DNA of 53,455 nucleotides from an uncultured Chryseobacterium sp. (GCA_964447465.1 CAYUTR010000002.1:1-53455); one strand, 5' to 3'; positions 655 to 35,989 are shown, numbered from the stretch's first letter. Numbers and translations: made by a program. The notes: a model not told the origin generated them from the sequence alone.

Positions 655-696
655 AGAATTATTTTTTGCCCAAAATTTCAAACTACAATTTGCGAA

Positions 697-750
697 AATC
701 AGCGTAATCTGCGAATCTGTGGCAAGGGCGTGCTGGCACGCCAACAACAG
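697..750. repeat. Partial inverted copy of the 55-nt unit with a different GC hairpin (ggcgtgc-tg-gcacgcc)
   Basis: 702-725 'gcgtaatctgcgaatctgtggcaa' is the exact reverse complement of the central 24 nt of the unit. It can pair with copy 2 across a ~45-nt AT-rich spacer. Confidence 0.8.
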
Positions 751-765
751 AACCGAAACCAGATT

Positions 766-2022: not shown

Positions 2023-2030
2023 TTGAGGCT

Positions 2031-2330
2031 TAACGCTGCGCGGGCTCTACACGGCGGCGCGGAGAAACGGAGAGTTCTGAAAATAATATATTGGCGACAA
2101 CCGAAACCCACGAGACACGGGCGCTAAAGCAACAAGTTACTCTAACGCTGCGCGGGCTTTACACGGAGGCACGGCGTAACGGAGGTTGTGAAAATGAGAT
2201 ATCGGTTTCTATCAAAACCCACGCGACACGGAGATCGCTGCGCGGGCTTTACACGGAGACACGGCGTAACGGAGAATTGTGAAAATGATATATCGACCTC
2301 AACCAAAGTCCACGCGGCACGGAGCGTTCT
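2031..2330. repeat. Three tandem ~90-110-nt imperfect direct repeats (core 'cgctgcgcgggctttacacggaggcacggcgtaacggag..tgtgaaaatga')
   Basis: Copies start at ~2031, ~2143 and ~2234. Each ends with 'aaacccacg(a/c)gacacgg'-like sequence. They fill the dinB-dnaE2 intergenic gap. Confidence 0.85.
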
Positions 2331-2375
2331 CTCATCTTCGATGTGAGTAATTTCTTCACATAGAAGATCGCTTTA

Positions 2376-2470
2376 GTCCCGATAGCTATCGGGACGCCGT
2401 TTCTCGTGGGTTTAGCATACAAAGTACGTCGCCGTTTCGCCGCGCCTCCGTGTAGAAGCGCCGCAGGCAG
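2376..2470. repeat. Perfect 20-nt palindrome (gtcccgatagctatcgggac) followed by an inverted, diverged copy of the 2031-2330 repeat unit
   Basis: 2396-2413 is the reverse complement of an 'aaacccacgagaaacggc'-type segment. 2428-2470 is the reverse complement of a 'ctgc..gcggcgcttctacacggaggcgcggcgaaacggcgac'-type segment. Both resemble the direct copies. Confidence 0.7.
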
Positions 2471-2480
2471 CCAAAAAAAC

Positions 2481-7824: not shown

Positions 7825-8703
7825 TTATCCCATTGGATGCCATTTGTTGATTAGTTCACGTTCTTCCTGCTGGTTAGATTGACGGTATTTGATCGTGGTG
7901 GAAATCCATCTATGCCCTGCCATAAGTTGCACCTGCTCCAGTGGCAGACGCTTTTCATTGAGCCAATTGGCAACAACACTCTGACGGATTCCCGTTGGTG
8001 TCAAGTTGCGATCAGGGAAAAGTGGTTTGTAAGTAGAAACGATATAGTGAACATCATCAACGGTGATTGGCGCTCCGAGTTTTCCGACGATAAGTGCTTC
8101 TGTATTTACAGAAAGCAATTCACCACGCGTCTCGTTTATGTACTTGTCTAGGATTCGATATTGCTTCGCTGATATTTCAAGATGACGGCGAGAAAGCATA
8201 CGGCTTTCCTTAATGTAAATTGTTCCGCGCTCAAGATCAACGTGAGAGACTTTCAGGTTTACAATTTCATGCGGAACAAGTCCCTGGTGAATGAGTAAAG
8301 ACACAAGTGCTTGATTTTTCAACTTGAGCGCAGGATAACGTTCTTCCCGTTGCAGGAGCAATTCAAGTTCTTCAGTAGAAAAAAGATCGTTGTGAATCAC
8401 ACCACGATTTCTGTCAGTTCCTTTCAGGTGAAGTGATTTGCAGGGATGATCTTCACGCTTACCAATTTCAACGAGATAATCGTAGTACTTTTTGATTGCA
8501 GCTAAGAATCCGGCAACGGTGCGAATGTTCTTGTATTGGTTCTTTAAGTCATTCACGTAATCAATCACATCCTTGTAGTGATACTTTTCTGCCTTCGGAC
8601 AAATAGCCAAGAAATTCCCCACCGCGTACACGTAACTCTTCACTGTGCCGGAGGAATGTTTCATTTGACAGAGATACTTCTCAAATGTGAGGCTGTGCTG
8701 CAT
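7825..8703 (-). CDS. Tyrosine recombinase / phage-integrase-family protein (second of a pair)
   Basis: N-terminal SAM-like region 'FEKYLCQMKHSSGTVKSYVYAVGNFL'. C-terminal 'LMAGHRWISTTIKY' is a (H/G)H..(S/T)T..Y catalytic tail. It overlaps the upstream recombinase by 23 nt. Confidence 0.75.
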   Translation of the reverse strand: MQHSLTFEKYLCQMKHSSGTVKSYVYAVGNFLAICPKAEKYHYKDVIDYVNDLKNQYKNIRTVAGFLAAIKKYYDYLVEIGKREDHPCKSLHLKGTDRNRGVIHNDLFSTEELELLLQREERYPALKLKNQALVSLLIHQGLVPHEIVNLKVSHVDLERGTIYIKESRMLSRRHLEISAKQYRILDKYINETRGELLSVNTEALIVGKLGAPITVDDVHYIVSTYKPLFPDRNLTPTGIRQSVVANWLNEKRLPLEQVQLMAGHRWISTTIKYRQSNQQEERELINKWHPMG

Positions 8704-9634
8704 GATGCTTGTCGAATTGATTTCTTATGGATAGACGTTGTTTCCTTTTCTTGGCATAAATATGAACCGTGTCAATTTCAGAATGTCCGAGTAGCTTCTG
8801 AACAAACTCAATGTTCGCTCCGTTGTCCAGCAGGTGTGTAGCAAAGCCGTGACGCAAACAGTGCAACGTGATTTCCTTTCGAATGAGTTTTTGGTTCTTC
8901 GTGCGTTGTACAAGTTCCTTCAGGCGACCGTTCAGCTTGTCGCCCGTCATTCGTCTTCCTTCGTTGTTAATAAAAAACGCCGGAGTTGACTGAATAGTGT
9001 TTTTTGGAAAATACTTGGTGCGTTCGTAGATGATGTACTCCTTTAGTTTCTTCATCACTCCGTCAGATAACGGAATAGATCGGTACTTCCCTCCTTTACC
9101 TTCACGCACGAGCAACGTTCCCTTATGAAACAGCACATCGTTCACATTGAGCTTTTCTATTTCGCTCCTGCGCATTCCGCAGCCGTAAGCCGCACAGATA
9201 AGCGCGTGGTCACGTTTAGTTTCACAAGCGGACTGAATCAGTTTTATTTCTTCTGTGGTCGGTACGCTTCGTTCCTTGTTCTTACCGAACGAAAACTTTG
9301 GCAGTCGTGCCGGAGAACTTTTTATTGTTCCGACTTCAAGCAAGTAATCAAAGAACAACCGTAGTGAAAACATGTGGTGACGGATCATTGACTCGCTCAA
9401 CCCACCTGCACGCCTGTGATTGGGACGCTCACGGATATACTCGTAGTAGGCGATTATCTCCTGACCTTTCACCTGCGCAATGTCATCGATTCCGTTCTCG
9501 TGAATAAAATACAAAAACTCCCTCACCATGCTTCCGTTCATTTCTGATTTTGCATAACCTTTCGTTTCGACTTCTTTGTTAAAGTCTGCAAGGTGATTTT
9601 CAAAATCAGGATTGTATATGGGCAGGTGTTTCAT
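8681..9634 (-). CDS. Tyrosine recombinase (XerC/XerD-like integrase)
   Basis: 'AYGCGMRRSEI' (Arg I), 'ITLHCLRHGFATHLLDNG' (H-x-x-R) and 'LLGHSEIDTVHIYA' (His...Tyr) give the canonical R-H-R-H/Y set. Confidence 0.85.
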   Translation of the reverse strand: MKHLPIYNPDFENHLADFNKEVETKGYAKSEMNGSMVREFLYFIHENGIDDIAQVKGQEIIAYYEYIRERPNHRRAGGLSESMIRHHMFSLRLFFDYLLEVGTIKSSPARLPKFSFGKNKERSVPTTEEIKLIQSACETKRDHALICAAYGCGMRRSEIEKLNVNDVLFHKGTLLVREGKGGKYRSIPLSDGVMKKLKEYIIYERTKYFPKNTIQSTPAFFINNEGRRMTGDKLNGRLKELVQRTKNQKLIRKEITLHCLRHGFATHLLDNGANIEFVQKLLGHSEIDTVHIYAKKRKQRLSIRNQFDKHHAAQPHI

Positions 9635-9783: not shown

Positions 9784-11583
9784 TCACGCGGCACTGTTCA
9801 GGAGCATCAACTGTTTGTTCAGTTCTTCTTTCAGGCGCACACGTATTTTCTCCATGTCGTCCCAAAACACAATCTTGTATTTGAATCCGCGATTGGCATA
9901 ACCTCCTACGCGTTGCACGTACTCCAACAGTTCAAGGTCTTCCATATACCGGAAACATTGGGTCTTACTCAGGTTCAGAGCCAAGCGCACGTCACGCTGC
10001 GTGAACTGATAGTCGAACGGTTTACCCTTTGCCTGTGTCTTAATAAAATCCTTCATCTGATCGAAGAAGTGCCGCAGTGACGAGTCCAGATCATCTACTT
10101 TGAGCATGATGGCGTCAAACAGAATATCACATGCCATTTTCAGGTCTTGTGGTTCTGAAATCAGTCTGCCTTGCTCATCTCTCTGCCGTTGGTATTGGTG
10201 CAGAATAGTAATTTGCTTTACAAAGGATTGATAGTGGTTGTTCAGGCGGCGTAACATCTTCGCCTGTAATGGAAGGAATATCTTATCGGCGTACCTGTTC
10301 ACCACTTCAAGCGGTTTTATGCAGCGCATACAGTTTTGCAGGAACTCTCTAGCCTTTGCTTCTTCTGCACTGTCAATCACTCCGGCAAGTTTCTTGTTTT
10401 GGTGAATGATAATATCCCGCGTCTGTGAGTCGCTCTCGTCAACACCGATAATCATACTCCGGCTCATGTTGTCATAATAGACTTCTGCTTTGGTTGTCGC
10501 AAGCAGTGAGGCAAAATGGCTCTTAACCGTTTTTATGCCGGACACAAGATTGCCGAAACGGTCTTTATGAATAGTGGAGGATGAAATATTTCCTGCGCTC
10601 TGCAATTCCCTAAAAGCGTATTGCGCTTCTTCATCCAGTCCGTCATAATCCTGAATCAATATCAGTTTATCTACAAGCTCGTCCTTGTTGTAGTGATAAA
10701 AGGATTTGCTCGTTACGCGAGTCATGGATAAAACGTCTTCAGGCGGAAAACAGGTTCCTATCGAATTAATCAAATGACTTTTGCCGCTTCCGCTTGTTCC
10801 CTGTACGAGTGAATGTAACGGGTGACTCATCTTGTAAGTAGATGCAATAACAAACAGAAGTTTGCGTGTTCCTTCTTCCCCAACCACACCACTCTGCTCG
10901 ATGAACTTGTCTATGTTGTTAATCAGATTCGGCCGTGATAAAAACTCTATGCAACGTTTTTGATTTTCAGGAGAGATTGAGGCGTAAGACCGCTTGCTCT
11001 GGAATCCTGGCTTTGCCGTTTCAAATTGTGTTTCGCGGTGTTTTTCTAGTTGATCGGTTAGGTGCAAAAGATCGGCTTCTATTATTTCAGGATTCTGCGA
11101 GAACAGTTCCGCTAGTTCCTGCGAAAAGTTGCGAAGCGTTTCACGTTCGTACAGGTCAATCTTCACCCGCTCTTTTCGTTGGGTAGACGTTTCTTCGATA
11201 AGCAGCGTAACAGGCATAGAAGAAATATCCTGAGAAAGCATTCCTAGTACATGGTACTCGTTCTCTTCCATGCGCAGGGTGAGCTTATTCTCGTGAACGG
11301 TAACAAGTTCTCCCGACTGAACAGTATTGCTTACTTCATTTTGTTTTACGTGCTCAACGACTTCTTCGGACGTTGGCTGAACAGTTTCCTTTACAATTTC
11401 ATGCTTTGGAATAAAAGCGGATGCACTATGCAGGATACGCAAAAGACCTTCACCACCAGAATTCTGATAAACTTCGTTCAGTGATTCTTTCTCCAGCGCG
11501 ATATGTTTGATGTCCGAACGGACTAGCTCATGCAACTTTTCTCTTGCTTCTTTCATTTTTGTTCTGTTTGTGATTGGAAACAT
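9784..11583 (-). CDS. P-loop NTPase with C-terminal winged-helix-like region (putative SF3-type helicase / element replication protein)
   Basis: Walker A 'GTSGSGKSHL', Walker B-like 'LILIQDYDG', and a C-terminal 'FTQRDVRLALNLSKTQCFRYMEDLELLEY' wHTH-like stretch. The start is uncertain because the ORF overlaps the upstream gene by 56 nt (next Met at 11556). Confidence 0.55.
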   Translation of the reverse strand: MFPITNRTKMKEAREKLHELVRSDIKHIALEKESLNEVYQNSGGEGLLRILHSASAFIPKHEIVKETVQPTSEEVVEHVKQNEVSNTVQSGELVTVHENKLTLRMEENEYHVLGMLSQDISSMPVTLLIEETSTQRKERVKIDLYERETLRNFSQELAELFSQNPEIIEADLLHLTDQLEKHRETQFETAKPGFQSKRSYASISPENQKRCIEFLSRPNLINNIDKFIEQSGVVGEEGTRKLLFVIASTYKMSHPLHSLVQGTSGSGKSHLINSIGTCFPPEDVLSMTRVTSKSFYHYNKDELVDKLILIQDYDGLDEEAQYAFRELQSAGNISSSTIHKDRFGNLVSGIKTVKSHFASLLATTKAEVYYDNMSRSMIIGVDESDSQTRDIIIHQNKKLAGVIDSAEEAKAREFLQNCMRCIKPLEVVNRYADKIFLPLQAKMLRRLNNHYQSFVKQITILHQYQRQRDEQGRLISEPQDLKMACDILFDAIMLKVDDLDSSLRHFFDQMKDFIKTQAKGKPFDYQFTQRDVRLALNLSKTQCFRYMEDLELLEYVQRVGGYANRGFKYKIVFWDDMEKIRVRLKEELNKQLMLLNSAA

Positions 11584-13171
11584 TCACCGCCGCAATGGGC
11601 GATTCAATCAATACGATTTGTTCAAGGTGCTTCAAGCGTTTTATTGCCTCATAATGCTGCTCCATGAATTGCCCATCGAACAATGCTATGACCGCCTCAC
11701 GGTTGTCCAGCACTTTAGATTCTATCATCGTCGCGGCATCAATGATTGATGGAACCACGTACAGTTTCTTTGTCATCTCATTAGGATATTGAGGATAGAC
11801 GCCGGAATTGTTCATGTAACCTGTTTTTCTGTTCCGTAATCCGACAGAGAAAAAGTTAGTGACTTGATCCTTCTCATCCCTGAGTGGGAACATCACTGAA
11901 AAGATTCCAAACACCGTGAAGGGCGTTTGTCCATTATTAGTACCTACGCCGGATTCTTGCATGAATCCAACCCGTTCCAGTTCTCTTTTGAAGGCATCAC
12001 TTTTACGGTGGTGGATCTGGCCGGAATTAAAACAGGCACCGGATGATTCAATGGACAACATGTGTTCAGCTAACCATCGCCGAGGCGTTTCCGATTTTGC
12101 ATTTCTGATTCCGTTACTCAGTGATCGATAAATCATCTCAAGCGTTGCGGCTCTCTGATCTGAAAATCTTCCGAGGAAATCTTTTGGTAGTGATGGCATT
12201 TGGTCGTAGATATTTTCGTTCGAGCCAAAGCACACCAAATGATCAGAACGTTGCAAGCTGTTCATAGGATTATTTACCGCGTTTTCCGCCAAACTTTCAT
12301 CTATGATCGGTTTGCAACTATGATCGGAATTCTGCAAGCGGGAATCCGTTATCGGGAGTTCATAGTTAAAAATCAGAACTTCATTTTTCTTCCGTGTTGA
12401 TTTATGGGTGACACAAAAAGTGCGTTCAACTTCCTTCTTCTTCCATCCATATATATTGATGAAACTATCCAACAAGTCAGAGGGATAACAGGAGAGCAAA
12501 AACTTTCCTTTGATCTGACCAAGTGAATGCAGGAGTTTATGAAAATCGCCTTCAGAAAATCCTTTGTAGTGTCCGCAGTTGGAATTGAAGTAAGGAGGAT
12601 CGAGATAGAAGAAGGTGTCCAGCGAATCATATCGGGCAATTACCTTTAGTGCGTCACTGGATTCAACCTGCACATGTTGCAAACGCTCGGATAACTCAGG
12701 AGTGAATCTTTCCCGCTTGTTGGCAATGGACTTTCCCATTTTGTTGTCGCGTCCTAATCCCCAATTGCCGATACGGGAACTAAAACCCTGATTGGTTACT
12801 ACCCAAAACGCCCATGCGCGGGAAAGCGCATCGTGCACCTGTGAATTGTTGTAAACATCCAACGCTTTGTCATAGCACACGCGACTGTGCAGTGTTTGTT
12901 TAATTCTACGTTGCAGGTTGTCAAAATCGGAATGGAGAACCGCGTAGAAGTTGGTGACTTCTCCATTTATATCATTGATGACTTCGCTCCTGGACGGTTC
13001 TTTTGCAAAGAACAAAGCACCACCTCCCATGAATGCCTCCACATACAACGAATGCTCCGGCACAAGCGCAAGAAGCTCGCGCACCATTCGCTGTTTACCT
13101 CCGTAATATGTAATCGGAGGTTTTAGCTGAATGACTTCGCGCTTCTGTGTATGTATGGCAACTAGTTTCAC
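11528..13171 (-). CDS. Dam-type N6-adenine DNA methyltransferase fused to a DnaG-like (primase core/Toprim-like) C-terminal domain
   Basis: The N-terminal half carries 'YYGGKQRM', 'EAFMGGGALFF' (FxGxG) and 'FYLDPPY' (DPPY motif IV). The C-terminal half carries 'VMFPLRDEKDQVTNFFSVGLRNRKTGYMNNSG' (compare DnaG 'imFPIrD..GrviGFgGR....KYlNSPE'), then 'LYVVPSIIDAATM...VIALFDG', which is Toprim-like but lacks the conserved Glu. Confidence 0.7.
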   Translation of the reverse strand: MKLVAIHTQKREVIQLKPPITYYGGKQRMVRELLALVPEHSLYVEAFMGGGALFFAKEPSRSEVINDINGEVTNFYAVLHSDFDNLQRRIKQTLHSRVCYDKALDVYNNSQVHDALSRAWAFWVVTNQGFSSRIGNWGLGRDNKMGKSIANKRERFTPELSERLQHVQVESSDALKVIARYDSLDTFFYLDPPYFNSNCGHYKGFSEGDFHKLLHSLGQIKGKFLLSCYPSDLLDSFINIYGWKKKEVERTFCVTHKSTRKKNEVLIFNYELPITDSRLQNSDHSCKPIIDESLAENAVNNPMNSLQRSDHLVCFGSNENIYDQMPSLPKDFLGRFSDQRAATLEMIYRSLSNGIRNAKSETPRRWLAEHMLSIESSGACFNSGQIHHRKSDAFKRELERVGFMQESGVGTNNGQTPFTVFGIFSVMFPLRDEKDQVTNFFSVGLRNRKTGYMNNSGVYPQYPNEMTKKLYVVPSIIDAATMIESKVLDNREAVIALFDGQFMEQHYEAIKRLKHLEQIVLIESPIAAVNVSNHKQNKNERSKRKVA

Positions 13172-13172
13172 T

Positions 13173-13907
13173 TTAGGAGTTCATCTTAATTTGAAGTAAT
13201 TGTTTCATGAAGGGGACAACAGCTAAGTCAATCAACTTTTCCGCGTCGCGAGTGCATTCTCTCTCCCTGCCGAGCTTTTCCAATTGCTCGCGTAACACCT
13301 GCTTATACTTACCGTCCATCCAGTCAATCATTGTAGGGAAATCGTAGTTCCCCTTTGATTGTAAAAGAGGATAGATGATTTGGTAAGTTTCAATCTCAGT
13401 TTTCAGTCCTGCACTCATCTTGCGTTCATAATCTTCAAAAAGCAATAGAGCGGCTTTGTGAAGCAGCATTACTTTATTCTTTCCAGATTGCAGGTTAAGG
13501 TCTAATGCATGGAACAATTCGTTGTTCGCAGAAAGAATTGCTAACCGAATTTTCGGTTTGAGATACGCTTCTAGGATTGTGATAAGAGAATTAGCATATA
13601 TGGAATATCGCTTACTCAAGCCTTTCATTTCGTAATCATCATCACCGGAAGAATGTTCGAAGCGAATGATTTTGTTGATTAGGTTTTCCTCTAGTTCCAG
13701 CAATCCAGCTTCAACGCTTTTCAAATCAGAATAAAACAGACCATAGTTGCTTTTGAACTGCATGTTCTTACGGTTGTAAGTCACCGATATATATAAAGGA
13801 TATGCGTCCTTTTCTTTCCCTGTCTTCCCATCAACGATGGAATCAGGTTGGACATTCTTATTCAGGAAAAAATTGACCGTGATCTTTTTCTGTCTGGACT
13901 CGCTCAT
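13173..13907 (-). CDS. Hypothetical protein; N-terminus resembles the Arm-type DNA-binding domain of Bacteroidota integrases, with no catalytic domain
   Basis: 'KITVNFFLNK...DAYPLYISVTYNRKNMQFKS' resembles the 'vtfylrk...g.pIylritvngkr.efs' pattern. It starts 1 nt after the upstream stop. Confidence 0.35.
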   Translation of the reverse strand: MSESRQKKITVNFFLNKNVQPDSIVDGKTGKEKDAYPLYISVTYNRKNMQFKSNYGLFYSDLKSVEAGLLELEENLINKIIRFEHSSGDDDYEMKGLSKRYSIYANSLITILEAYLKPKIRLAILSANNELFHALDLNLQSGKNKVMLLHKAALLLFEDYERKMSAGLKTEIETYQIIYPLLQSKGNYDFPTMIDWMDGKYKQVLREQLEKLGRERECTRDAEKLIDLAVVPFMKQLLQIKMNS

Positions 13908-14028: not shown

Positions 14029-17000
14029 CTACTTAGTTTGTGCAGAATCCTGATTAATTAATTTAATATCTAATTCATACAAGAGCGCATACGGATTAGA
14101 ATGACCATCAGCATCATCCCATCCAAGCTCCTTCAGACTAAAATTGCGTACCGTAAAAACCAGTTCATTAGGTCCAGTGACTAAAGCACCGGAGTCGAAA
14201 GTGATAGGGACTGGTGCATGAGTTGTTATTTCAGAAGTGAGCACAGGTATTCCATTAATGGATAGTTTGCAAGTATCATCAACCCATAGCTTTAACGTGG
14301 CTTGTTCGATTAGTGTACTGTCTTCAAGTTCTATTTTTTTAATGAATGAATATGTGCCACCTGTGATTGCCTCCTCTTTGGGGATTACTTCTAAGTGCGC
14401 AATAAAATTTGTCTTCATTTTCTTGAACCACACATCTCTTGCAACAATTTCACTGAAACCTGAATGGGTGAAAGTGACGCTATTTTGGTAAGGTGAAACG
14501 GATTCATACTTGTTAACCAAAGTGCTTGAATCACTGACCTCCACAATGCTACCAGGTATCCAATGAATTGACCTGTTTTGCTTTGAAAACAATTTTAGAA
14601 AGTATGTCACTTCAATAGTTTTAGCTGTCCTTTTCAAACCCTTAACATATTGCGAAAGTTGCTCCGGAGAATCATCGAAAATCGATAGCGCAATTGCGTT
14701 TGGAACGTATCGTGAGTCCGGTTCACCTATAACTTCTGGAATAATAATGTTCTCCATAAAGTCCGAAGGTTGCTTTACCAAATAAGGAATGATCTTTTTC
14801 TTCGCGTCGGACATAAACTTTACATGTGAATCAATAATTTCTTCTATACAATTAGTATAGATGGATATTACCTCGGAATACTTTAGTTCTTGTATTACTG
14901 CTTGATCCAAGCATTGAACGACCACTGGCTTAAGAACTGCAGGCTTAACGATTTGACTGAGTTTGCCCGTTTTGTAATAGTGATTTGCTAAAAGCTGACT
15001 ACACACAACAGCTACTTCAACAGGTTTCTCAACTAGAGAGTTCTGAATAAACTTAATGAGCTCCTCCGATTGCGCATCGTGCAGCAGCTTCTCGTTTCGT
15101 TCGAAAAAAGTCTCTACGGTTCCCGCCATCAACAGATCTTCATCTAGCAGAGATGAATAAATCACGATCTTACCTTTTCGTACAAGGTTCTGAGCAGATG
15201 GCGTACGAACCATCTCAGAGACATAATTCTTAAATGAAGACGTTTTTTGTGTGATTAGGACTTTAATCAAATCATTCAGTCCAGCATCCTCTATCGTTTC
15301 CGAGGTTATTCGGTCAGTGGGAGATAATATAGCTGTGAAACTATCAAAGTACCACTCAAAGTAATCTCGATTCCGTATTGCAAATGCTGAGTTGTCTGAA
15401 CTTCTTCGTTCAAATAGCGCCTTAACGATATATTTTGATTCTCGGATCTTATCATTAGCGGAGCCCGTGCCAGGAAAATACATTTCTAAAAAATCCTCGT
15501 TTACACTTATTGCCTCATTAGGAATACTGTGCAAAAAAGATTTAGCACGAAGTAATTCATAAATTCTTGGCGCTTTAAGTTTTATCAACTCCACTTGAAA
15601 CAATTCGTAGCTGTCGATCATGCTATACTTTTGATCTTCCAAAAAGCACTGCATAAATGAGTTCACTAAAATGGTAACGTCTCGTGGATTGGTTACAAAG
15701 TTTGCAAAGTGATCATGCGGGACGTCTTTCTTAAACTCTGTTTGACCTTGTGAGTTGAAACTCCCAATTAATTGTAGATGCCCAAGCAAATCTTCATGCG
15801 AATTTATTCTTTGAACGCAAGTATCTAAAGATCGCTTGGCGGATTGATATCCTGTCGCTTCAACTTTTTGAAAATAATTTAAAAGTGCATCTTGGCATCT
15901 TTTTGTAAAGAGCTCAACTAGAGCTGATCTGGTTGGATGCGGTAAATGAAATTGAACCTGAAATATCTTATTGAGATATTCCGTCGGATTTTCCGAGTTG
16001 ATCAACTTTATCGAATTCTCAATGTAAGCACGGTCATAGCCAATTAAATAAAAGGTGTTTGCGAAATTGGCAGTATTGCGAATGATTCTAAGTACTTCAA
16101 TTACTTCCTTGTTATTCAGTCGATCTAAATCATCAATGATTACTACATATCTATTATTCCCATCTGCTAAAGCAGTATTGAGCTGGGAAATATCAATTGG
16201 CTCGCTTGGAGCAATAAGTTCCAACGGATTTTTCTCAAACCACTTTTTTGATTTCTGGTAAAACTGATTTGCATATGATTTAAACTCGGAGGCAAGCCTT
16301 CCATCAAGTTCACCCTCAAACTGTTTTAAGAACTGAGATTCCAATTCTTCGAGTTGATGTGCCCAAGGAATGAAATACAGTATTTTCGGTTTAGGTAAAC
16401 CTGATTGGGCTGCGCGATTCAAAAGCGACTGGAGGACAAGCTTCACAAAATATGTCTTACCACTTCCCCAGCGACCTACAATTCCGAATCCTACAGATCG
16501 ACTTAGCTTAATTTTTAATATCTCCCCCGCTATGAATTCAGCTTTTGGACTTCGACCGAAGGAATCTTGAACAATTTCCTCTGGATTGTCAAATGGTAAC
16601 TGTTCAATGGAAAATATAGAAGTATTATGAGGCTCTAGGGGTGACGTGATTTTATATGCCTCAATGCGTGAATAAGAAATGTAGAGGCACAGTATAATAA
16701 CGGGTAAAACATAGGGAACTGAAAACTCGTTGAAATCAATTGTATAGAACTGCCAGAAAGGATTTGGTACTATCCAAAAGAAGATACACAACCATGCAAC
16801 GAGGAAACTGGAATAGGTGACCCAACTTGGAAATGATTTTTTAACTATCCTGCTATGAATAATGCTTGCAGCAATTGATGACAGAAGAAATATACCAAAT
16901 CCGATAATGCACAGAATATCTTTTGGGTTAATGAACTTGCCAACAGTTTCGGTTAGAACAATATCTCCGTAATACGCGAGCCCCTTGTGAAAAATGGTAG

Positions 17001-17091
17001 TAACAAGTAGCGTTAACGCTACAAATATTATGTCCTTTCTAACTAAAGATTGATTGTATTTCGCGGGACTAACCTTATCCTTTTTATCCAT
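14029..17091 (-). CDS. Membrane-anchored KAP-family P-loop NTPase with a long C-terminal extension
   Basis: About four N-terminal hydrophobic helices. Walker A 'GIVGRWGSGKTYF' and Walker B 'VVIIDDLDRLNNKEVIEVLRIIRN' are KAP-family hallmarks. The C-terminal ~150 aa looks like a beta-sandwich ('LKLWVDDTCKLSINGIPVL...GPNELVFTVRNF'). Confidence 0.75.
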   Translation of the reverse strand: MDKKDKVSPAKYNQSLVRKDIIFVALTLLVTTIFHKGLAYYGDIVLTETVGKFINPKDILCIIGFGIFLLSSIAASIIHSRIVKKSFPSWVTYSSFLVAWLCIFFWIVPNPFWQFYTIDFNEFSVPYVLPVIILCLYISYSRIEAYKITSPLEPHNTSIFSIEQLPFDNPEEIVQDSFGRSPKAEFIAGEILKIKLSRSVGFGIVGRWGSGKTYFVKLVLQSLLNRAAQSGLPKPKILYFIPWAHQLEELESQFLKQFEGELDGRLASEFKSYANQFYQKSKKWFEKNPLELIAPSEPIDISQLNTALADGNNRYVVIIDDLDRLNNKEVIEVLRIIRNTANFANTFYLIGYDRAYIENSIKLINSENPTEYLNKIFQVQFHLPHPTRSALVELFTKRCQDALLNYFQKVEATGYQSAKRSLDTCVQRINSHEDLLGHLQLIGSFNSQGQTEFKKDVPHDHFANFVTNPRDVTILVNSFMQCFLEDQKYSMIDSYELFQVELIKLKAPRIYELLRAKSFLHSIPNEAISVNEDFLEMYFPGTGSANDKIRESKYIVKALFERRSSDNSAFAIRNRDYFEWYFDSFTAILSPTDRITSETIEDAGLNDLIKVLITQKTSSFKNYVSEMVRTPSAQNLVRKGKIVIYSSLLDEDLLMAGTVETFFERNEKLLHDAQSEELIKFIQNSLVEKPVEVAVVCSQLLANHYYKTGKLSQIVKPAVLKPVVVQCLDQAVIQELKYSEVISIYTNCIEEIIDSHVKFMSDAKKKIIPYLVKQPSDFMENIIIPEVIGEPDSRYVPNAIALSIFDDSPEQLSQYVKGLKRTAKTIEVTYFLKLFSKQNRSIHWIPGSIVEVSDSSTLVNKYESVSPYQNSVTFTHSGFSEIVARDVWFKKMKTNFIAHLEVIPKEEAITGGTYSFIKKIELEDSTLIEQATLKLWVDDTCKLSINGIPVLTSEITTHAPVPITFDSGALVTGPNELVFTVRNFSLKELGWDDADGHSNPYALLYELDIKLINQDSAQTK

Positions 17092-17138
17092 TGATAAGCT
17101 AATTAAACTTTGTAAGTCAAGAATGATAATTCATCGGG

Positions 17139-17999
17139 TCATTTTGGTTCTGTGAATCCCTCTTTAGCTAGTTCAAAGTATTTCTCTGGAGTTTGTGCAA
17201 ACTCCATAATTTCATAATCAAGAGTGCCCCCAATTTGATTCAGAGCATTTAGGTTTAAACAAGTGGCCAGCCATAGTTCTCTCTGAAGATTTTTATTTTT
17301 CCATTGAGGATATATCCACGTAAGTCGGAATGCAATTTCTTCCAGCTGAAACCGGTATGATTGTAAGTAGAAGTATGGAATAACTCCTAAGGTCAGAAGT
17401 ATTGGAAAAATGAACGTGTAAAGGGTGGTCGTTGAGGCGATTTGACTCCAATCGGAGAATATGGCAGTTGAAGAGTAGATTAACATTACAAGTGAAACTA
17501 AGACCAGATAACCAATCGAAAATCTAGAGATTGAACTTGGTTTCTTGTCATTTATCACAACGAGGACAGAACATATTAACAAAGTCGGCCAGAGAATCAT
17601 CTCCCAAAGTAAACTGAAGCTCTTGAGATTTGCCAAAAACTCAATGAACACAGTCACTCCGATTGCTTCTTTAACTAACCGAACAAAGTTCTTTTTGGAT
17701 TTCAGCTTTAACAGATAAATAAATGTAACAGCAGCGAAACCGATAAACCAGAGAAGTGAATCCTTGATAGCCTGATCATGCCAAATTCCAACGACCTTCA
17801 AAGTGACCACAAGAAGAACGGAGATTAGAGTAAGGATTAGGAAAGAAGAAAATACTTTCCACTGGAAAAGGGCTTGAATAAATCCTCTAACAGATTTTCG
17901 CACTTTTTTGCTGGTCGCAGCAATGACTGATAGTAGAAGCAACCAGATCAAGAAAGCTAATTCTCGGTTCGAAAATATTAATTGAGCTTTTTCCCACAT
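17139..17999 (-). CDS. Polytopic inner-membrane protein (about 7-8 predicted TM helices), unknown function
   Basis: 286-aa ORF dominated by hydrophobic ~20-aa stretches. It lies 11 nt after the GTPase gene stop and 47 nt before the KAP gene start. Confidence 0.6.
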   Translation of the reverse strand: MWEKAQLIFSNRELAFLIWLLLLSVIAATSKKVRKSVRGFIQALFQWKVFSSFLILTLISVLLVVTLKVVGIWHDQAIKDSLLWFIGFAAVTFIYLLKLKSKKNFVRLVKEAIGVTVFIEFLANLKSFSLLWEMILWPTLLICSVLVVINDKKPSSISRFSIGYLVLVSLVMLIYSSTAIFSDWSQIASTTTLYTFIFPILLTLGVIPYFYLQSYRFQLEEIAFRLTWIYPQWKNKNLQRELWLATCLNLNALNQIGGTLDYEIMEFAQTPEKYFELAKEGFTEPK

Positions 18000-18010
18000 C
18001 CTATTATCTG

Positions 18011-20299
18011 TTACTTTGCTTCTGAATATTCTTTCAATGCATTCGCTATTCGATCAATTTTATTAGTCCTTCGATTTATTTCTTCTATGCATTCATTAAT
18101 TGCTTTTGACATTACCTGATCTGGTGGCGTCTTGTAGGTATTCAACTCTTTAGTTATTTGACCGAAATAGACGTTTGTCCTGTCGCGAAGCTGTTTAATC
18201 ATATCGCGACATTGCTCGTTAATGTGGCGATTAAAATCACTATAGGTTTGATCAAACACCTTACTATAAGACTTTTCAGCTCGAGACATTATTTGATTAA
18301 TTTGTTTATTTCGCACACCATCTCGTCCTAAGAAAAGACGCTCAAAGAAATCATATAAACCGGTAAATAAATCTCCGATTGAACTAAATATTTCCTCCAG
18401 TAAGTTCAAAGCTTTGGGAATCGATTGAGCAAATGAATCTCGAATCGGTCTGATGACGTCATTAATATTGCTTTTATCTCTCATCTGGTCAAAACTTGGA
18501 TCTGCTAGAAACTCGACTTGCAACAATTCGGTTTTTATCCAATGGTTGAGTTCATTATACAAGTTGTCCAGTTTGTAGTTGACTTCATCATATACCTCGG
18601 TCAAAATGGAGTACGCTTGATTCTCCAGATACTGCCGAATCGCAAAACTATTAGGCAGCGGTGCGTTATCCGAAATCGACGTCAATTGATCTCGCAGATT
18701 CTCCAAACGTTCATTAGCCGATGAATTCAAATATTGTTCTAACCATAGGAGCATTTCAATTCTACTATCTTCACCTACTTGTGAAAGTTTGCCCAATTGT
18801 TTTTGTACACGGTGAATATCACTCTTCAGCTTCTGTGCAACCTCAGCTTCAGTTAACCGAGATCTTAGAATTTTGGATAATCTTAATAAGGCTTCTTTAA
18901 ATTCATAGGTAAGTCCGCCCAAAGTCTGAAGACCATTTCGATTTGTTTTAAGTAAGTTATCCCACAAGATGTCTTCTAAATTTTGAATGTCCAGCGGATG
19001 TTTCTTTTTGATATTTTTTGTTAGATTCTCGAATGAAGCCTTCGCGCTTATATAGATCGGAGGGTGTGGCAAAATTTGATTTAACCCATTTTGTTCTAAC
19101 ACTGAATTTATATATCCTTTAAGCTGCTTGAGACCTTCGCTTGAAATTGTATCAGCTTTATTAAAAACCAAATAAACCCGTTCCATTCTTGGCGCTAGTT
19201 CGCGAAGGTCGTTGAGATGATGTGAATTAATTGAAAAGCCACCATAATTGAATGGCGAGACATCGATTAAGTATATAATTGCATTCGAACTCAGTACTGC
19301 GATCTTGCTGATTCGTCGGGTTTCTTCATTGACGTCATCAAGTCCAGGGACATCGCAATACGCAAGACCCTTCTCCAATAAGTCATTAACGAGATACACC
19401 GTAACTAATTTTACTTTTTCTTTATTCCCTCGATTATATTGTTGATCAACATACTTCTGCAGAAACTTTACAGTCGGATCGCCATTAACAATTGTGCCGT
19501 CGTGAAGCATAACTTCTGCGCGAGGTGGATTGCCCGATTGAATCGTAAATGGTACCCCTGTAGTAGGAAGAATATTGACGGGAGAAATTTCTTGCTTCAT
19601 CAAAGCATTAATCGTTGTACTTTTCCCAGAGCGGCTTGGACCGACGATAGCAATAGTGTAAATTGAATTCAGAGTACGATCCAGAAGTGCGTCGAATGGT
19701 TGTCGCTCTTCAATTAGATTCTTATTAGTTAGATACGCAAGTATATCGGCAATTTCATTTTTGAGAGAAGTTCGAAAGTCAAAGAACGCATTCTTCGCGA
19801 GAGTTTTATTCCCTGTTGAAGTGGAAGAATTACCAGTCAAGTATTCCTCAATTAAAGCAACTTCGCTTTGTGTTAACTCTCGAAACTGATCTAGGGGAAG
19901 CCTTATTTCCTTCATGCCAACCCACTTAGCTCCATATTTTGTCCTCAGCCAATTGTAAAATTTATCATTGAACCACAGATAGTAAAATTTGGAATCAACT
20001 TTCGTTACAAGCATGATTGGTAATCTGGCTTTTTGCCACTTCTCAAACATTGCTGTTTGAACCACTACTGTTTCACCTTTAATTGAAGTGTGAACAGAAA
20101 TTCTCAGTTTCTTACCGGAGACCAAACGGCGATCACTGTTAGATAATGGATTTAATACCTCAACAGTAAAATCATAGCCAGCACTTAATCCACGTCCAGG
20201 TTGAACATTACAGGGCGTAAATATTTTTACGAGCGCATCCAAAATACCCTGTTCGGGGTTCGGCTTTTTGTCAACCACTTTTTTAGACTGCTTTTTCAT
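18011..20299 (-). CDS. Dynamin-like GTPase with an N-terminal DUF4365-like (restriction-endonuclease-fold) domain
   Basis: G1 'GPSRSGKST', G3 'DVPGLDD' and G4 'FNKAD', followed by a long helical C-terminal half. The N-terminal 'GYDFTVEV...KLRISVHTS...LPIMLVTKVDSKFYYLWF' resembles DUF4365. The ORF opens at 20395, but Met at 20299 (MKKQSKK) gives only a 17-nt overlap with the upstream gene. Confidence 0.7.
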   Translation of the reverse strand: MKKQSKKVVDKKPNPEQGILDALVKIFTPCNVQPGRGLSAGYDFTVEVLNPLSNSDRRLVSGKKLRISVHTSIKGETVVVQTAMFEKWQKARLPIMLVTKVDSKFYYLWFNDKFYNWLRTKYGAKWVGMKEIRLPLDQFRELTQSEVALIEEYLTGNSSTSTGNKTLAKNAFFDFRTSLKNEIADILAYLTNKNLIEERQPFDALLDRTLNSIYTIAIVGPSRSGKSTTINALMKQEISPVNILPTTGVPFTIQSGNPPRAEVMLHDGTIVNGDPTVKFLQKYVDQQYNRGNKEKVKLVTVYLVNDLLEKGLAYCDVPGLDDVNEETRRISKIAVLSSNAIIYLIDVSPFNYGGFSINSHHLNDLRELAPRMERVYLVFNKADTISSEGLKQLKGYINSVLEQNGLNQILPHPPIYISAKASFENLTKNIKKKHPLDIQNLEDILWDNLLKTNRNGLQTLGGLTYEFKEALLRLSKILRSRLTEAEVAQKLKSDIHRVQKQLGKLSQVGEDSRIEMLLWLEQYLNSSANERLENLRDQLTSISDNAPLPNSFAIRQYLENQAYSILTEVYDEVNYKLDNLYNELNHWIKTELLQVEFLADPSFDQMRDKSNINDVIRPIRDSFAQSIPKALNLLEEIFSSIGDLFTGLYDFFERLFLGRDGVRNKQINQIMSRAEKSYSKVFDQTYSDFNRHINEQCRDMIKQLRDRTNVYFGQITKELNTYKTPPDQVMSKAINECIEEINRRTNKIDRIANALKEYSEAK

Positions 20300-21353
20300 C
20301 TTTCCAAATTTTTGTCTTGCCATCCTGTGATTTATAGAAACAGCATGAAAACATACCGGACTCTTGCATCGCCTCGAAAGCTTGTGAACGAGCACCGCCT
20401 GACGTTCTCTGATATTTTGACTTATGAATTATATAGTGAAATCCTAATAACTTCCCGTCTTCTGAAAAAATTGTGATGCCATCATTGTTGATAGCAGCTT
20501 CCAGCATGAAAGAAAATTGTTGTAGTCGTGAAAACTGTTCAGGTTTTTTGCCCTCCAGAGCTTTAACAACTAGCGCCCCCAAATCAATAGCATGATCCAA
20601 TTCATATCCGATAAACTCTTCACTGTCAAGTTTCAATTTGGAATTTCCAACCGCCATCAATGTTCCGTGACCTTTATTAATTGCTTTGTAAATTGAATTA
20701 TGCAAAAACGATTTAACCTCCTTCTTTTTTTTGCCCTTCAAGTTTTTTACGACGCTATCGGTCAGCACGGAAACATCATTGTAAGGAATGTTATTGGTGC
20801 TATTAGTAGAAAAGGATAGTATCAACTCCTCTTTGTGCAGGCCATTCAACCTTACATTCTTCTGACCGATATTTCGCAAAGCAATGACTCGAAGATTGCG
20901 GAGGCGGACTTCTTCACTTGAGAAAATCTGTTCAACCAGAGGTGCCGATAAATCATCCTTAACACCATTCAAGATGCCGAATTCAAGCCAACTCGGCGAG
21001 CTGTACTGGTCGACTTCGATGTAAATCACCCACCCACCAATTGCAAGTGGGGCACATGCCTTTAGAATTCTCTCAAATTCAAGTGGAGATGGAGGAGGTA
21101 ATGCGAAATCGCCAATCCTGACCTTGTAAAAGTGTTTGAATTGTCGTGCGAGTTCCTCTATGCTTGATACGACAATAACGTCTGGCATAAGTAGACGTCC
21201 TTCCTCATGATAGTCTGACAAAGAATCGGCAATACACAAAATGCCTTCAGATATTTCAATGGATAAGTACGCGCTCGATTCAAAGAACTTCTCCTTCAAA
21301 AGGAGCATCTCAATTTTCTCACGGTATTGTTCCTTGAATGCAATTGTGGACAT
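20283..21353 (-). CDS. Hypothetical protein with a C-terminal DisA_N/DAC-like (diadenylate-cyclase-fold) region carrying degenerate catalytic motifs
   Basis: 'NKGHGTLMAVGN' (compare GALIVI), 'NNDGITIFSEDGKLLGFHYII' (compare DGAVII) and 'TSGGARSQAFEAMQESG' (compare GTRHRAA) occur in the order and spacing seen in DAC domains. This is a by-eye call only. Confidence 0.4.
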   Translation of the reverse strand: MSTIAFKEQYREKIEMLLLKEKFFESSAYLSIEISEGILCIADSLSDYHEEGRLLMPDVIVVSSIEELARQFKHFYKVRIGDFALPPPSPLEFERILKACAPLAIGGWVIYIEVDQYSSPSWLEFGILNGVKDDLSAPLVEQIFSSEEVRLRNLRVIALRNIGQKNVRLNGLHKEELILSFSTNSTNNIPYNDVSVLTDSVVKNLKGKKKKEVKSFLHNSIYKAINKGHGTLMAVGNSKLKLDSEEFIGYELDHAIDLGALVVKALEGKKPEQFSRLQQFSFMLEAAINNDGITIFSEDGKLLGFHYIIHKSKYQRTSGGARSQAFEAMQESGMFSCCFYKSQDGKTKIWKDEKAV

Positions 21354-21522: not shown

Positions 21523-22311
21523 TTATTCTTCCTCACAATTGAATCTGAGTTCCTCGCTATCCTCTGTAACCTTCCAACGAACAGGGAATCCTCCATTAAT
21601 AAGTTCCATGACTAAGTTGCTGGGTGGAGTAATGCCAGAAGGTTTGAAGGAAACGTAAACATCCACCTTTTCATAAAACGTCATTTTCAATGCTCTGAGA
21701 TTGAACTGATCCTGTTCTCCCATTCTATAGGAAAAGACTTGAGGATTCTCTCCTTTTGCTAACCAATTTTTTCCTTCCGCTTCAAATGCAGTTTCACAAA
21801 GCCGAGCAAGATTTCGCGTGTTCTCAGTTTGATACTTTAGGAAACCCAAAATCACCTGAATCTCACCAGAAAATGGTGTGCTAAACTCATGGAAATAAAT
21901 TCCACATGCTATATTCTTAAAGCACTTTTCTAGTCGGTCGTAATTCGGTTTGCCTAAGAACACAGGAAACTTATTGCCGTTACCGTTGTCTAAAACTATA
22001 TGTTTTGCGTTGCGCACGACCTCACTCATAAATTGGTCGCCCTTGCGATCGAAAATGCGTCGCGTTTTTGAATGAAGATGTAGGAATGCTACTGCGTTAC
22101 TTCCTACGTTGGCAGAAAGAGCAGCAATTAAGAACTCATCGTCGTCAGATTTTCCTGTATTATGCAGTTCGCAAGACGGCACCGTTATCAAGTTCCTGCG
22201 GAAATTTTGTCCGAGACCGATGTCTTTCTCAGCTGGAAATAAACCACGGGCAGGAACATGCTCGCGGCTTGTTGCTAGTTGATTGCATATATAACATCTT
22301 TCAGAGTTCAT
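21523..22311 (-). CDS. HNH-motif protein (putative nuclease), 262 aa
   Basis: 'CYICNQLATSREHVPARGLFP...VPSCELHNTGKSDDDEF' follows a CxxC...EH...P...C..HN arrangement, like HNH/His-Me finger nucleases. Confidence 0.5.
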   Translation of the reverse strand: MNSERCYICNQLATSREHVPARGLFPAEKDIGLGQNFRRNLITVPSCELHNTGKSDDDEFLIAALSANVGSNAVAFLHLHSKTRRIFDRKGDQFMSEVVRNAKHIVLDNGNGNKFPVFLGKPNYDRLEKCFKNIACGIYFHEFSTPFSGEIQVILGFLKYQTENTRNLARLCETAFEAEGKNWLAKGENPQVFSYRMGEQDQFNLRALKMTFYEKVDVYVSFKPSGITPPSNLVMELINGGFPVRWKVTEDSEELRFNCEEE

Positions 22312-28556: not shown

Positions 28557-31500
28557 TTATGGGCCATATCGTCCTCTTCCCTGAACTCCAACTTCGTAAT
28601 ATAATGGGCCACCGTTTATACCATTACCATAAGCTGCATGATATCCGTGAGCCATTCTCGTTGTGTCTCCACTATATCCTCCACCCTCCCAAGATAGGGT
28701 TTGATAGTTTGGTTCATAAGCGATTAATTTATATTTTCTGTCAACCATAGTCCAATTAACCTGGACTTGTACAGGCGTACTAACTGCCATCAACTTAGTG
28801 CGTGTTCCATATCGCCTTTGACCATCATCATCTAAGTAAAAACCAGGATATTCAACCCAACCCCAATTCTCCTGCATAACTTGTGTCGTCCCGGTCCCGC
28901 TGCGCGTTGTCACCTCAACTCCCGTCCATATAGTCTGAAATCCATAGTTGACACCATCCTCATCAACACTAGCGTTTCCATACCATTCACCATCTAAGCT
29001 CAAATCTCCTTTGTGAGTATTGAGGTTATAAGTGTACCCAAGCCCTACTTCGGGACCGTTATTTTTGGAGGAGTTAAGACCTGTGCCTGCACCAACATTA
29101 AACTGGTCGACAATTTCAGGATCGGGCCCGAGAAGATTGAATTTATCGTAAGGGTCGTATGAATTTACTGCAAAACGTGGTGTATTAACATTGTAGTTTA
29201 GATTGTCTTTACCCGTAGATTCCAACACGGCAGGATTCGTACCACCGCCTCCAACGTCAACCATCGGCATTTGACAATGAACAAAACCATTCTCGTATCC
29301 CGTAACAAAATAATAAGCACCATCGGCCATCCGAACATATCCTGAAATGGTTTCACCCAAATATTTTTCCCCATTTTGCACATCACCCTGACTATGCACA
29401 TTTTCATCAAACCGTACTTTCCCATCAGTTCCTTTAATCCACCCCTCTGCGTCAAGTCCACTTGGATCAACACAGTAAATCGGATTATTGGCGAAAGACG
29501 AGTAAGGGCTTTCCCACGGTTTCACAATAGGATCTTTGCTCATCCATCTTCCAATTCTTGGATCGTATTGACGATACTCCGTCGTATAACTCAACGCTTC
29601 CCCATTCTTAATTTCCGGATCAGATTCCATCCCGTTAAACGCGTACCTGTAGCTGCCACCCGCACGTCCCGTCTGCGGCGCGCCAAACACATAATAATCT
29701 GAGTAAGACTGTACGTCTGCGACATACCATTCCACTTCCGTCGGTGATCCAACTGAAGAGTAGAGTAGGCGCTTATCACTAATCGTAACCAGCACGTTTC
29801 CTAAGTGGTTAGATACCTCGTACTGTTTATATCCAATCGTCCTCGTATAATGCGTCTTGTTGTACGCGCCAGTACTTGCAGTAGGTGTCGCACTATTGAA
29901 CTTTCCGCTTGTGAGTGTCGTGGTGAAATCCTGATAGTAATCACTCTCATCATCCGCATGTCTTATGCCTGCACGTCCACTTCCATAAACACCGTTCTCC
30001 TCGAGATCAATTTTCACTTTGTAATTCCCACTCGTGAGATCTTCAAAGCTCTGTTTGTACACTCCCATCAGGTTTCCACCCGCATCGTATACATACCAGT
30101 AATAAATCCAGTTGGTCTGGTCATCGATTCCGGCTCCACTTGCCTTGTGCGGTTTTACAATTTTGCATAGGCGCTGCTGTCCTGCTGTGTAGAGGAATTC
30201 TACATCTGCGTCACCATATTCAGTACTCGTGCACGCATTCGTGTTGTTTGCCTGGTCTTTTCGTACGGCTTTTACTTTGCCATATGGATTCCACTCTATA
30301 TCTGTAATTCTTTCACTGGCATCATCAGTCATTTCTCCGATCACATCGTACACATAATTTCCACCTGTGCCCTGGTTATCCAGATCATCGCTGTAACTGC
30401 AACTGCCTTGTCCATCCATGATCTTTAACAGGATGTTGCTGTTGTCTTTGTACTTGTAACTCAACGAATCTGACTTCACCGCCATACCTCCTCCACCTAC
30501 ATTTCCAGCAAAGCGGTTTACGTTAGTAATGTTTCCGTTCCAGTCGTACCAGAATTCTTCTTCGAAGCGATCGTTTTGCGTATAGCTGGTTTGCCACTCG
30601 TTGTTAGTGAGTGCTGTGCCATCCATATGAAAGGTTGTGCTCCACTTTATGCGATACAGCTGATCGTACCTGAATGCTCGTCCCTGTACTTCTGTTCCGT
30701 ATTCGTCTGCATCGAGCATAGATGTAGTCATACCTGCAATGTTACCGTTGTACTGGTTGGAAATTCCGGTTCCATACGCGCTCGTGCTCATGTCCGCTTC
30801 AAATGCTGGTGTTGCATTTACACTCGTGTAGTCTGCACTTATCAAACCTACAGCCTGATAGTAACTCAACGTAAATCCGGCGGCATCTGTTCCAATGTTT
30901 CTGTTCAGATTGTTTGCGTCATCCACTCCGTCCTGACCCAAATCCCGCTCCTGAAATTCTCCATTATCACCAATGGTATTTCTGTTCATGCCTTTCAACC
31001 ATCCGTTGATTGTGAACGCATAGTCCATAGCCTGCACGGTCTTATCGCCAATCTCAACCCGTCCAACTCCTCCGGTAGCATAGTAAAACTGCTTTTGTTC
31101 CTTTTCCCAGTGTACGTTGTCTCTGGAAGTGTAAACTACTTTCAGTCGGTTGTCGGCGTCGTACTCGTACTTGTGGTGAAACTCGTCGCGTTCTCCGTCC
31201 TGATAATGAACCGCGTTTACATTTCCACTAATGAGATCGTACTCGTATGTCGTGCTCTTGATATTCTGATTATGCGTTTTCAACGGCGGAGTTTCCTGAA
31301 CAACCTGTTTTACATTTCCATGTATATCATAGCTGTAGAAATACGCACTCAAATAATCGGGCTGTGAACTTGCACTGAAATTGTACAGGTCATATTGTAC
31401 CGTTGGATCATCATCGTACACAACTGCTGTTACACGGTTTCTCGTATTTTCTAGTCCGCTTGGGAATGCTGCAGTTGCGTCACTCGAGATAGAAGGGTCT

Positions 31501-35972: not shown

Positions 35973-35989
35973 GGGCAGGTTCCTCTTTC

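Follow-up and report, generated by a model that had tools for sequence, protein, structure and literature searches.

Diadenylate cyclases (DACs) act in anti-phage defence in the PanDA/Panoptoo and CBASS-DAC systems (2025-26 work), and cyclase activity has been found in those defence-associated DACs that were tested to date. Within these systems, PanS (~150 aa) occurs with the 2TM-beta effector PanE, and DS-2C (~550 aa) combines DACNG, DACNH and DisA_N; both are recognised by DisA_N, and the search in the preprint on defence DACs relied on Pfam signatures. Dynamin-like proteins likewise defend against phage, as DynA in B. subtilis and as Eleos, and the DUF4365 nuclease of SPARDA is reported to be activated by filament formation. 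Here, these systems are compared with a 7.3-kb block of four genes, g1 to g4, at positions 14029-21353 on the minus strand of a 53,455-nucleotide stretch of DNA from an uncultured Chryseobacterium sp. (GCA_964447465.1, CAYUTR010000002.1:1-53455); this whole stretch is referred to below as the window. A first-pass annotation had taken the block for one four-component defence system. The reading favoured here, with somewhat better than even confidence, is that the block holds three independently inherited modules (A, g1+g2; B, g3; C, g4) in a horizontally acquired defence-type island and does not form one machine. Judged by comparison of gene neighbourhoods, g1+g2 is the sole conserved unit of the four genes, and it represents an apparently undescribed two-gene candidate defence module.

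Reading of the DNA places all four co-directional open reading frames (ORFs) within the block, and the homologues found elsewhere for each of them indicate that g1-g4 are real genes. Their spacing agrees with the earlier description: g1 and g2 overlap by 17 nt, followed by gaps of 11 nt between g2 and g3 and 47 nt between g3 and g4. The mechanical ORF of g2 reaches a GTG at 20395; the ATG start used here is that of gene call P0195 (762 aa), near the starts of the orthologues. No terminator-like site was detected by scanning the g2-g3 and g3-g4 gaps, and the sigma-70 promoter/terminator scan returned counts no higher than shuffle expectation, with Bacteroidota promoters lying outside its coverage. 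The four genes may be co-transcribed here, which is attributed to island packing.

The distribution of the g1 family was obtained from a profile scan that yielded 24 loci in 185,579 species genomes and 52 in metagenomes, with 5 more from contig look-ups. A pair of g1 and a dynamin is found in the window, in L001, in L025/L026/L041, in L027 and in L028; L041 is the same element as L025/L026 and is therefore not an independent instance. In L001, the closest genome locus (g1 at 44% identity), the dynamin lies directly downstream of g1, and in L025/L026, L027 and L028 g1 is followed by a dynamin of 765-818 aa that either overlaps it or lies 7 nt away, with neither g3 nor KAP. Dynamin orthologues at 47-55% identity are always located directly downstream of a g1 orthologue, and the identities of the two proteins co-vary across the pairs (44-51% for g1 and 47-55% for g2). 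Every related locus, like the window, contains a single dynamin gene. Collectively, these comparisons indicate that g1 and g2 are co-inherited, with conserved translational coupling.

The remaining two genes do not follow this pattern. Profiles of g3 and g4 gave no match in the 28 g1-containing genome and contig loci, in the 52 g1-containing metagenome loci or in the five loci of g1-less dynamin relatives. None of the three KAP-relative loci carries g1, g2 or g3, and in all three g3 contexts examined the gene stands alone, with no KAP, dynamin or g1 gene beside it. The proteins encoded downstream of other dynamins (458 aa in L027, 240 and 799 aa in L033, 252 aa in L032) show no g3 or g4 homology. 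The claim of one four-component system is not supported by these data: the families do not co-occur, with g3 or g4 in 0 of ~80 other g1 loci, and the quartet is not conserved as a neighbourhood, only g1+g2 being recurrent.

Most g1 genes have a different partner, an all-helical protein of ~431-448 aa (p435), which is directly downstream of g1 in 20 of the 24 loci from genomes and in 47 of the 52 from metagenomes; the remaining metagenome loci comprise one with a dynamin (L041) and others that are truncated or decayed. A g1 family that occurs with interchangeable partners, dynamin or p435, gives g1 the appearance of the constant element. No match to p435 was found in Pfam, PADLOC, NCBIfam or the PDB; it matches phrog_27609 (8.8e-25), an unannotated family. 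Its possible origin as a truncated dynamin stalk was considered and rejected, as hhalign against the g2 alignment shows no similarity. In these loci (L002-L023 and L042-L092, for example L002:9977-12327), the g1-family gene (~350 aa) is overlapped by p435, and the hosts are mostly Bacteroidota, together with one Opitutaceae metagenome-assembled genome (MAG) and one Colwellia MAG. A separate observation concerns the element of L025 (L025:6843-9942, also L026 and L041), where two co-directional genes (385 and 649 aa, without a Pfam match) precede g1, from which 59 nt separate them; no other g1+dynamin instance has them, and they may be extra components of this variant.

The assignment of g1 comes from its predicted structure. 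Searches of Pfam, NCBIfam, PADLOC and PHROGs gave no match for g1, whose family comprises 116 homologous clusters, mostly from Bacteroidota, among 5.8 billion proteins. An AlphaFold2 model built from 23 homologues reaches a pLDDT of 87, and in a Foldseek comparison of this model with the PDB the top 50 matches are all DAC domains (DisA, CdaA, DacA, CdaM and DacM), with probabilities of 0.89-1.0, a best E of 1.4e-3 and target-normalised TM-scores of ~0.45-0.53 for DAC-domain chains of ~150 residues. The model thus displays the DAC alpha/beta fold, and the DAC-fold designation given earlier to g1 is confirmed at the level of the fold.

Within the C-terminal half of g1, the order of secondary-structure elements in the model agrees with that of CdaA, and four collinear motifs can be paired (g1/CdaA: GHGxLxxV/GALI, with GHGtLmaV in the window g1, DGITIF/DGAVII, GGARSQAF/GTRHRAA and KSQDG/SEETG), in a register that was set by eye from spacing and secondary structure with no significant alignment behind it. 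The motif spacing is 31/20 residues in g1 compared with 32/19 in L. monocytogenes CdaA, whose sequence was checked against the PDB. All 114 family members have the same eight residues, D291, G292, R322, A325, S342, Q343, D344 and G345; accordingly, DG is kept as DGI and the first Arg of RHR is kept throughout (both 114/114), while SEETG is replaced by SQDG. The RHR equivalent reads R-[ST]-[KR] in 105/114 members and R-S-Q/H in the dynamin-linked clade, and, as judged from the alignment, this active-site change at residue 324 tracks the partner switch. Furthermore, g1 has an extra N-terminal domain of ~200 aa with an invariant motif of its own, SDYHEEG (114/114). A tandem DAC duplication was also considered but is not claimed, since the two halves of g1 give no signal when compared by hhalign (P 0.64) and share only a similar secondary-structure order.

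The g2 protein, which belongs to a set of 14 homologous clusters, is readily recognised as a dynamin-like GTPase. Residues 216-348 match Pfam Dynamin_N (3.7e-17), the columns of the G1-G4 motifs are invariant in the g2 alignment (A2), and Foldseek retrieves BDLP (2j69, 5.6e-17), then IniA, Cj-DLP1/2, SynDLP, mitofusin and LeoA. The protein therefore shows the BDLP-type arrangement of a G domain with G1-G4 and a helical neck/trunk, and distant homologues are hydrophobic in the stalk segment at aa ~597-653. Pfam does not match the N-terminal ~160 residues of the window protein itself; in the full-length homologues P0202-P0206 (27-36% identity), the aligned N-terminus carries PF14280 (DUF4365). 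The proposal of a DUF4365-like head on a dynamin GTPase is therefore supported, but the head, described earlier as nuclease-fold, has lost the catalytic Q-x-K of DUF4365.

This loss follows the presence of g1. In alignment A2, QLK is found in 5/5 g1-less homologues; among the g1-linked proteins Q is lost in 7/7 and K in 6/7, and the window g2 has S-V-H at this position (ISVHTS vs VQLKS). Q62 and K64 are the assigned active-site residues of the SPARDA-type DUF4365 nuclease, and Q62A/K64A was used as the inactive mutant (PMC10810196). Consequently, the g2 head in the window clade is probably not a nuclease, and across the aligned sequences loss of the motif coincides exactly with the presence of g1. 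The g1-less DUF4365-dynamins with intact QLK (P0202, P0203, P0205 and P0206) sit in the cargo of CTnDOT-type integrative and conjugative elements (ICEs) and in defence islands, beside AAA_21/RloB, SIR2_2 and an NB-ARC/TPR STAND NTPase. Such stand-alone fusions are a candidate for a defence protein encoded by a single gene, and no description of them was found in the literature searched.

Comparison with the described systems brings out both likeness and difference. As in PanDA/Panoptoo and CBASS-DAC/DS-2C, the DAC-fold protein g1 shares a tight operon with a partner gene and occurs in defence-island-type contexts, and the residues that line up by eye with DGA and with part of RHR are conserved. 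In contrast to PanS and DS-2C, g1 has 356 aa, is unseen by DisA_N and possesses another N-terminal domain, and its partner is a dynamin or the 435-aa helical protein, not 2TM-beta, cGAS or patatin. With Eleos (LeoA/LeoBC) and DynA, g2 shares the BDLP-type fold and an intact GTPase, the Foldseek match to LeoA being to 4aur. PADLOC gives weak scores to LeoBC (42.8 bits, 9.8e-12) and LeoA (37.7 bits, 3.3e-10), and 22-37 bits for the orthologues. Unlike Eleos, which uses two or three dynamin paralogues or a two-headed fusion, the locus has one dynamin gene and thus lacks the multi-paralogue arrangement; unlike both Eleos and DynA, g2 bears a DUF4365-derived domain at its N-terminus and is accompanied by an obligate DAC-like protein. 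Through full-length relatives the head is homologous to DUF4365, the domain of the SPARDA (DREN) nuclease effectors, and the assembly-switched effector logic proposed below follows SPARDA, but neither Argonaute nor APAZ is present and the catalytic Q-x-K is gone in the window clade. The literature searched contained no paper linking DUF4365 with dynamin, nor DAC with dynamin in an anti-phage context. The pairing of a nucleotide-cyclase fold with a dynamin is an apparently undescribed combination and a candidate defence-type module.

The surroundings of the g1 pairs are in part of the kind found in defence islands. ORFs within 3.5 kb of the pairs encode type IIG restriction-modification (RM) enzymes, short prokaryotic Argonaute (pAgo) with SIR2-APAZ, capP-like proteins, DrmMI and mad genes, and HipA/B, AAA_15/21, SocA/Panacea, a Peptidase_M78 regulator and a serine recombinase lie near the g1+dynamin loci; the flanks differ in every genome. 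In the window, GC content is 0.37-0.40 over ~13-29 kb and 0.44-0.49 in the flanks, and two tyrosine recombinases are located at 7825-9634, ~4.4 kb from the four-gene block, which bears out the earlier description of an island with integrases. The two recombinase genes, of 292 and 317 aa, are minus-strand and tandem, with a 23-nt overlap. No tRNA gene occurs anywhere in the window.

For the third gene, g3, hydropathy scanning gives ~6 transmembrane (TM) segments, so that its earlier description as a polytopic protein holds, but not the helix count of 7-8. The family is large, with 2,544 representative clusters (50% identity) at E<=1e-3, 1,190 of them at E<=1e-10; relatives are mostly ~285 aa long, some with C-terminal extensions of ~150 aa, and R12, W19, W84, E133, P208 and Y211 are invariant. 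No Pfam domain was found in g3 or in the relatives tested (within P0211-P0359). These comparisons place g3, as a 6-TM protein that stands alone, in a large family without characterised members, independent of the adjacent g1+g2.

The fourth gene, g4, is a KAP NTPase with TM helices at its N-terminus, as the first-pass annotation had stated: residues 181-480 match KAP_NTPase (PF07693, 6.9e-31), and the scan gives 4-5 helices where about four had been proposed. The same annotation had found no named anti-phage system for the combination and overlooked, for g4, a PADLOC match to PifA (7.5e-41), whose best stretch covers profile positions 172-275 of 720. F-plasmid PifA, identified from the gene adjoining pifC, shares 26% identity with g4 over aa 171-400 only by BLASTP, the rest being without similarity, so that the resemblance is not full-length. 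The ~230 aa in common include the Walker A and DDLDR motifs, and similarity is limited to the NTPase core. A KAP P-loop domain is common to g4, PifA and other KAP NTPases, QatA among them; g4 differs from PifA in its 4-5 N-terminal TM helices, in an unrelated C-terminal region of ~540 aa and in the lack of a pifC-like repressor. Although 77 homologous clusters exist, no close homologue of g4 was found among the 5.8 billion proteins: its best relatives, Bacteroidota proteins of 840-890 aa with the same layout of TM anchor and KAP domain, have 28-36% identity over <45% of the query. The C-terminal ~540 aa, described earlier as a beta-sandwich, have no sequence match in Pfam, NCBIfam, PADLOC or the PDB. 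By its sequence and the context of its relatives, then, g4 is a stand-alone membrane-anchored PifA-like KAP NTPase, and by analogy with PifA it probably acts alone as a single-gene abortive-infection protein.

Two of the KAP-relative contexts deserve mention. One KAP relative overlaps a Shedu-type SduA_C gene, and another lies in a DnaB-carrying element. In the former (L029:4764-8562), the TM-anchored relative P0120 from Sphingobacterium overlaps the end of the SduA_C gene by 11 nt and comes after SIR2_2 and DUF87 genes. This arrangement suggests that KAP NTPases of the g4 subfamily can be recruited into other defence operons.

A mechanism for g1+g2 may be drawn by analogy, in which a dynamin-licensed g1 would have replaced a lost nuclease effector. 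The ancestor would have been a single-gene DUF4365-dynamin with intact QxK, in which GTP- or membrane-driven assembly gathered the nuclease heads and switched them on, for which SPARDA is the precedent. In the g1-linked clade the nuclease would have died and the output role passed to g1. Its DAC-like domain, like those of all DACs, would need face-to-face pairing to act, and dynamin assembly could then allow g1 to produce, or to bind, a nucleotide signal leading to arrest of the cell. Alternatively, the membrane-remodelling GTPase itself could be the effector, under the control of g1.

The three-module reading has to be set against several findings that weigh on the other side. With respect to geometry, the 11- and 47-nt gaps without a terminator leave room for a g3/g4 link specific to the window, and a g4 without a close orthologue anywhere places such a link beyond what conservation can exclude. 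The independent g1+dynamin instances number only about 5-7, all from MAGs or metagenomes, the defence role of the candidate module is read from gene context only, and some g1+p435 loci lie among housekeeping genes (ATP synthase, citrate synthase). As for g1 itself, Pfam DisA_N (PF02457) does not match it even at E<=10, the family profile finds no DAC among PDB sequences, and hhalign of g1 (23 or 114 sequences) against L. monocytogenes or B. subtilis CdaA is not significant (P ~0.1-0.27), even if the best local path does place GxLI and DG in register; consequently, "DAC-like" is a fold-level statement only. In addition, the counterpart of the last Arg of RHR (residue 324), K/R in 105/114 members, is Q/H in the dynamin-linked clade, which makes cyclase activity less certain there. 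The geometric points also favour the model in which all four genes form one sense-and-kill system, with g1 as DAC-like signaller, the KAP NTPase as switch or effector, and both the dynamin and the polytopic protein acting at the membrane. This model further draws on the co-directional order with its 17-nt overlap, on the position of the block in a low-GC island with integrases, on three of the four products being membrane-associated or plausibly so, and on the full form of g4 being unique to the window, which puts its partners out of reach of a conservation test. It is nevertheless highly improbable, given that 0 of ~80 g1 loci carries g3 or KAP, that 0/3 KAP-relative and 0/3 g3-relative loci carry the other genes, and that each component has its own distribution and stand-alone relatives. 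Tight packing of unrelated systems is, moreover, usual in defence islands.

The remaining alternatives accept the g1+g2 pair and concern its function. An unlikely possibility is that g1 has no catalytic role and serves as a nucleotide-binding or regulatory subunit, for instance a receptor for cyclic di-AMP (c-di-AMP) or a related signal, that gates the dynamin, with the GTPase as the effector sealing or remodelling the membrane like DynA and Eleos. The degraded RHR of the dynamin-linked clade (R-S-Q/H), the lack of a significant sequence match between g1 and active DACs, the additional N-terminal domain with its invariant SDYHEEG and the sufficiency of dynamin-like proteins for phage protection in B. 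subtilis and Eleos would all suit such a subunit; the counterparts of Asp and Gly in DGA, of the first Arg in RHR and of the Ser and the acidic residue in SEETG are, however, invariant in 114 members, as in a working active site, and the activity of the defence DACs tested so far also speaks for catalysis. It is very doubtful that g1+g2 and g1+p435 form an accessory housekeeping module, such as one coupling envelope-stress or osmotic c-di-AMP signalling to membrane repair. Canonical DACs are reported to govern osmoregulation and cell-wall homeostasis, bacterial dynamins work in membrane surveillance, several g1+p435 loci are flanked by housekeeping genes and no g1 match was found in IMG/VR viral contigs. 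Against this stand the patchy distribution (~116 clusters among all proteins searched) with flanks that change from genome to genome, the proximity of the pairs to RM, pAgo, HipAB, capP-like, recombinase and ICE genes, the low-GC island around the window copy and the ancestral DUF4365 head, a known defence nuclease domain. It can be suggested tentatively, at rather low confidence, that the g1 family is a third, cryptic class of defence-associated DAC-fold enzymes, in which a constant signalling or effector core is combined with swappable partners (p435 or a nuclease-dead DUF4365-dynamin), dynamin assembly licenses paired DACs and one effector has been swapped for another.

If g1+g2 proves to be immune in function, it would join dynamin-like GTPases (Eleos, DynA) with DAC-type nucleotide signalling, two themes that have been separate so far, and profile-based DAC surveys would be seen to miss a whole divergent family. 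If the proposed mechanism is true, the pair would be the first bacterial dynamin-like GTPase wired to nucleotide second-messenger chemistry and would record an effector swap, from a fused nuclease to a separate cyclase, on one dynamin chassis. The correlation between Q-x-K loss and g1 gain provides a testable hypothesis of effector replacement, and the much commoner g1+p435 pair would stand out as a two-gene system that is strictly conserved yet uncharacterised. The locus also serves as a caution that close spacing in a defence island is no proof that neighbours form one system.

The coordinates of the genes and domains are collected in Table 1.

Table 1. Genes and domains of the four-gene block and related stand-alone fusions; positions refer to the window unless a locus is named.
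Feature	Position	Strand	Remarks
g1	20283-21353	minus	356 aa
g1 C-terminal DAC-like domain	20286-20741	minus	aa ~205-356
g2	18011-20299	minus	762 aa, counted from ATG
g2 N-terminal head	19820-20299	minus	aa ~1-160; DUF4365 (PD-(D/E)xK) derived
g2 GTPase domain	19100-19663	minus	G1-G4 intact: GPSRSGKST, TT246-247, DVPG, NKAD
g2 helical stalk	18017-18988	minus	low-confidence amphipathic tip, aa ~597-653, at BDLP membrane paddle position (AlphaFold2)
g3	17139-17999	minus	286 aa
g4	14029-17091	minus	1020 aa
g4 N-terminal TM helices, 4-5	16678-17046	minus	hydropathy scan
g4 KAP domain	15652-16551	minus	P-loop NTPase
Upstream gene	21523-22311	minus	262 aa, CxxC...H-N motif; outside conserved module
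Stand-alone DUF4365-dynamin fusion	L032:7001-9331		Q-x-K intact
Stand-alone DUF4365-dynamin fusion	L033:7001-9244		Q-x-K intact
Stand-alone DUF4365-dynamin fusion	L035:7001-9301		Q-x-K intact
Stand-alone DUF4365-dynamin fusion	L036:86-2419		Q-x-K intact

The gene upstream of g1 had been placed about 170 nt away as a stand-alone gene with an HNH motif, and the measured distance of 169 nt agrees with this. It has no sequence match in Pfam, NCBIfam, PADLOC, PHROG or the PDB and no homologue in any related locus searched. When the other island genes of the window were compared with all related loci, the shared neighbours were generic TPR, integrase and methyltransferase matches only.

Downstream of g4, a tight operon on the minus strand (9784-13907) comprises genes for a 244-aa protein without an assigned function, for a D12 adenine methyltransferase of 547 aa and for a P-loop protein of 599 aa (phrog_12057), their junctions being a 1-nt gap and an overlap. 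The methyltransferase has a C-terminal extension of ~270 aa and matches the PADLOC profiles MTase_II (9e-31) and PD-Lambda-5_B (1.3e-19); the operon may be a separate RM-like or defence module. At the left border of the island, positions 77-5627 hold a mutagenesis cassette, in which a PDDEXK_3 gene precedes an ImuB-like Y-family polymerase at 730-2022 and, at 2406-5627, a DnaE2-type error-prone Pol III alpha. Elsewhere in the window, three very large ORFs (2471, 2117 and 1136 aa) occupy 28557-47787 on the minus strand, their sole Pfam match being a weak DUF6443 on the first; next comes a gene of the T2SSF family (48740-49873).

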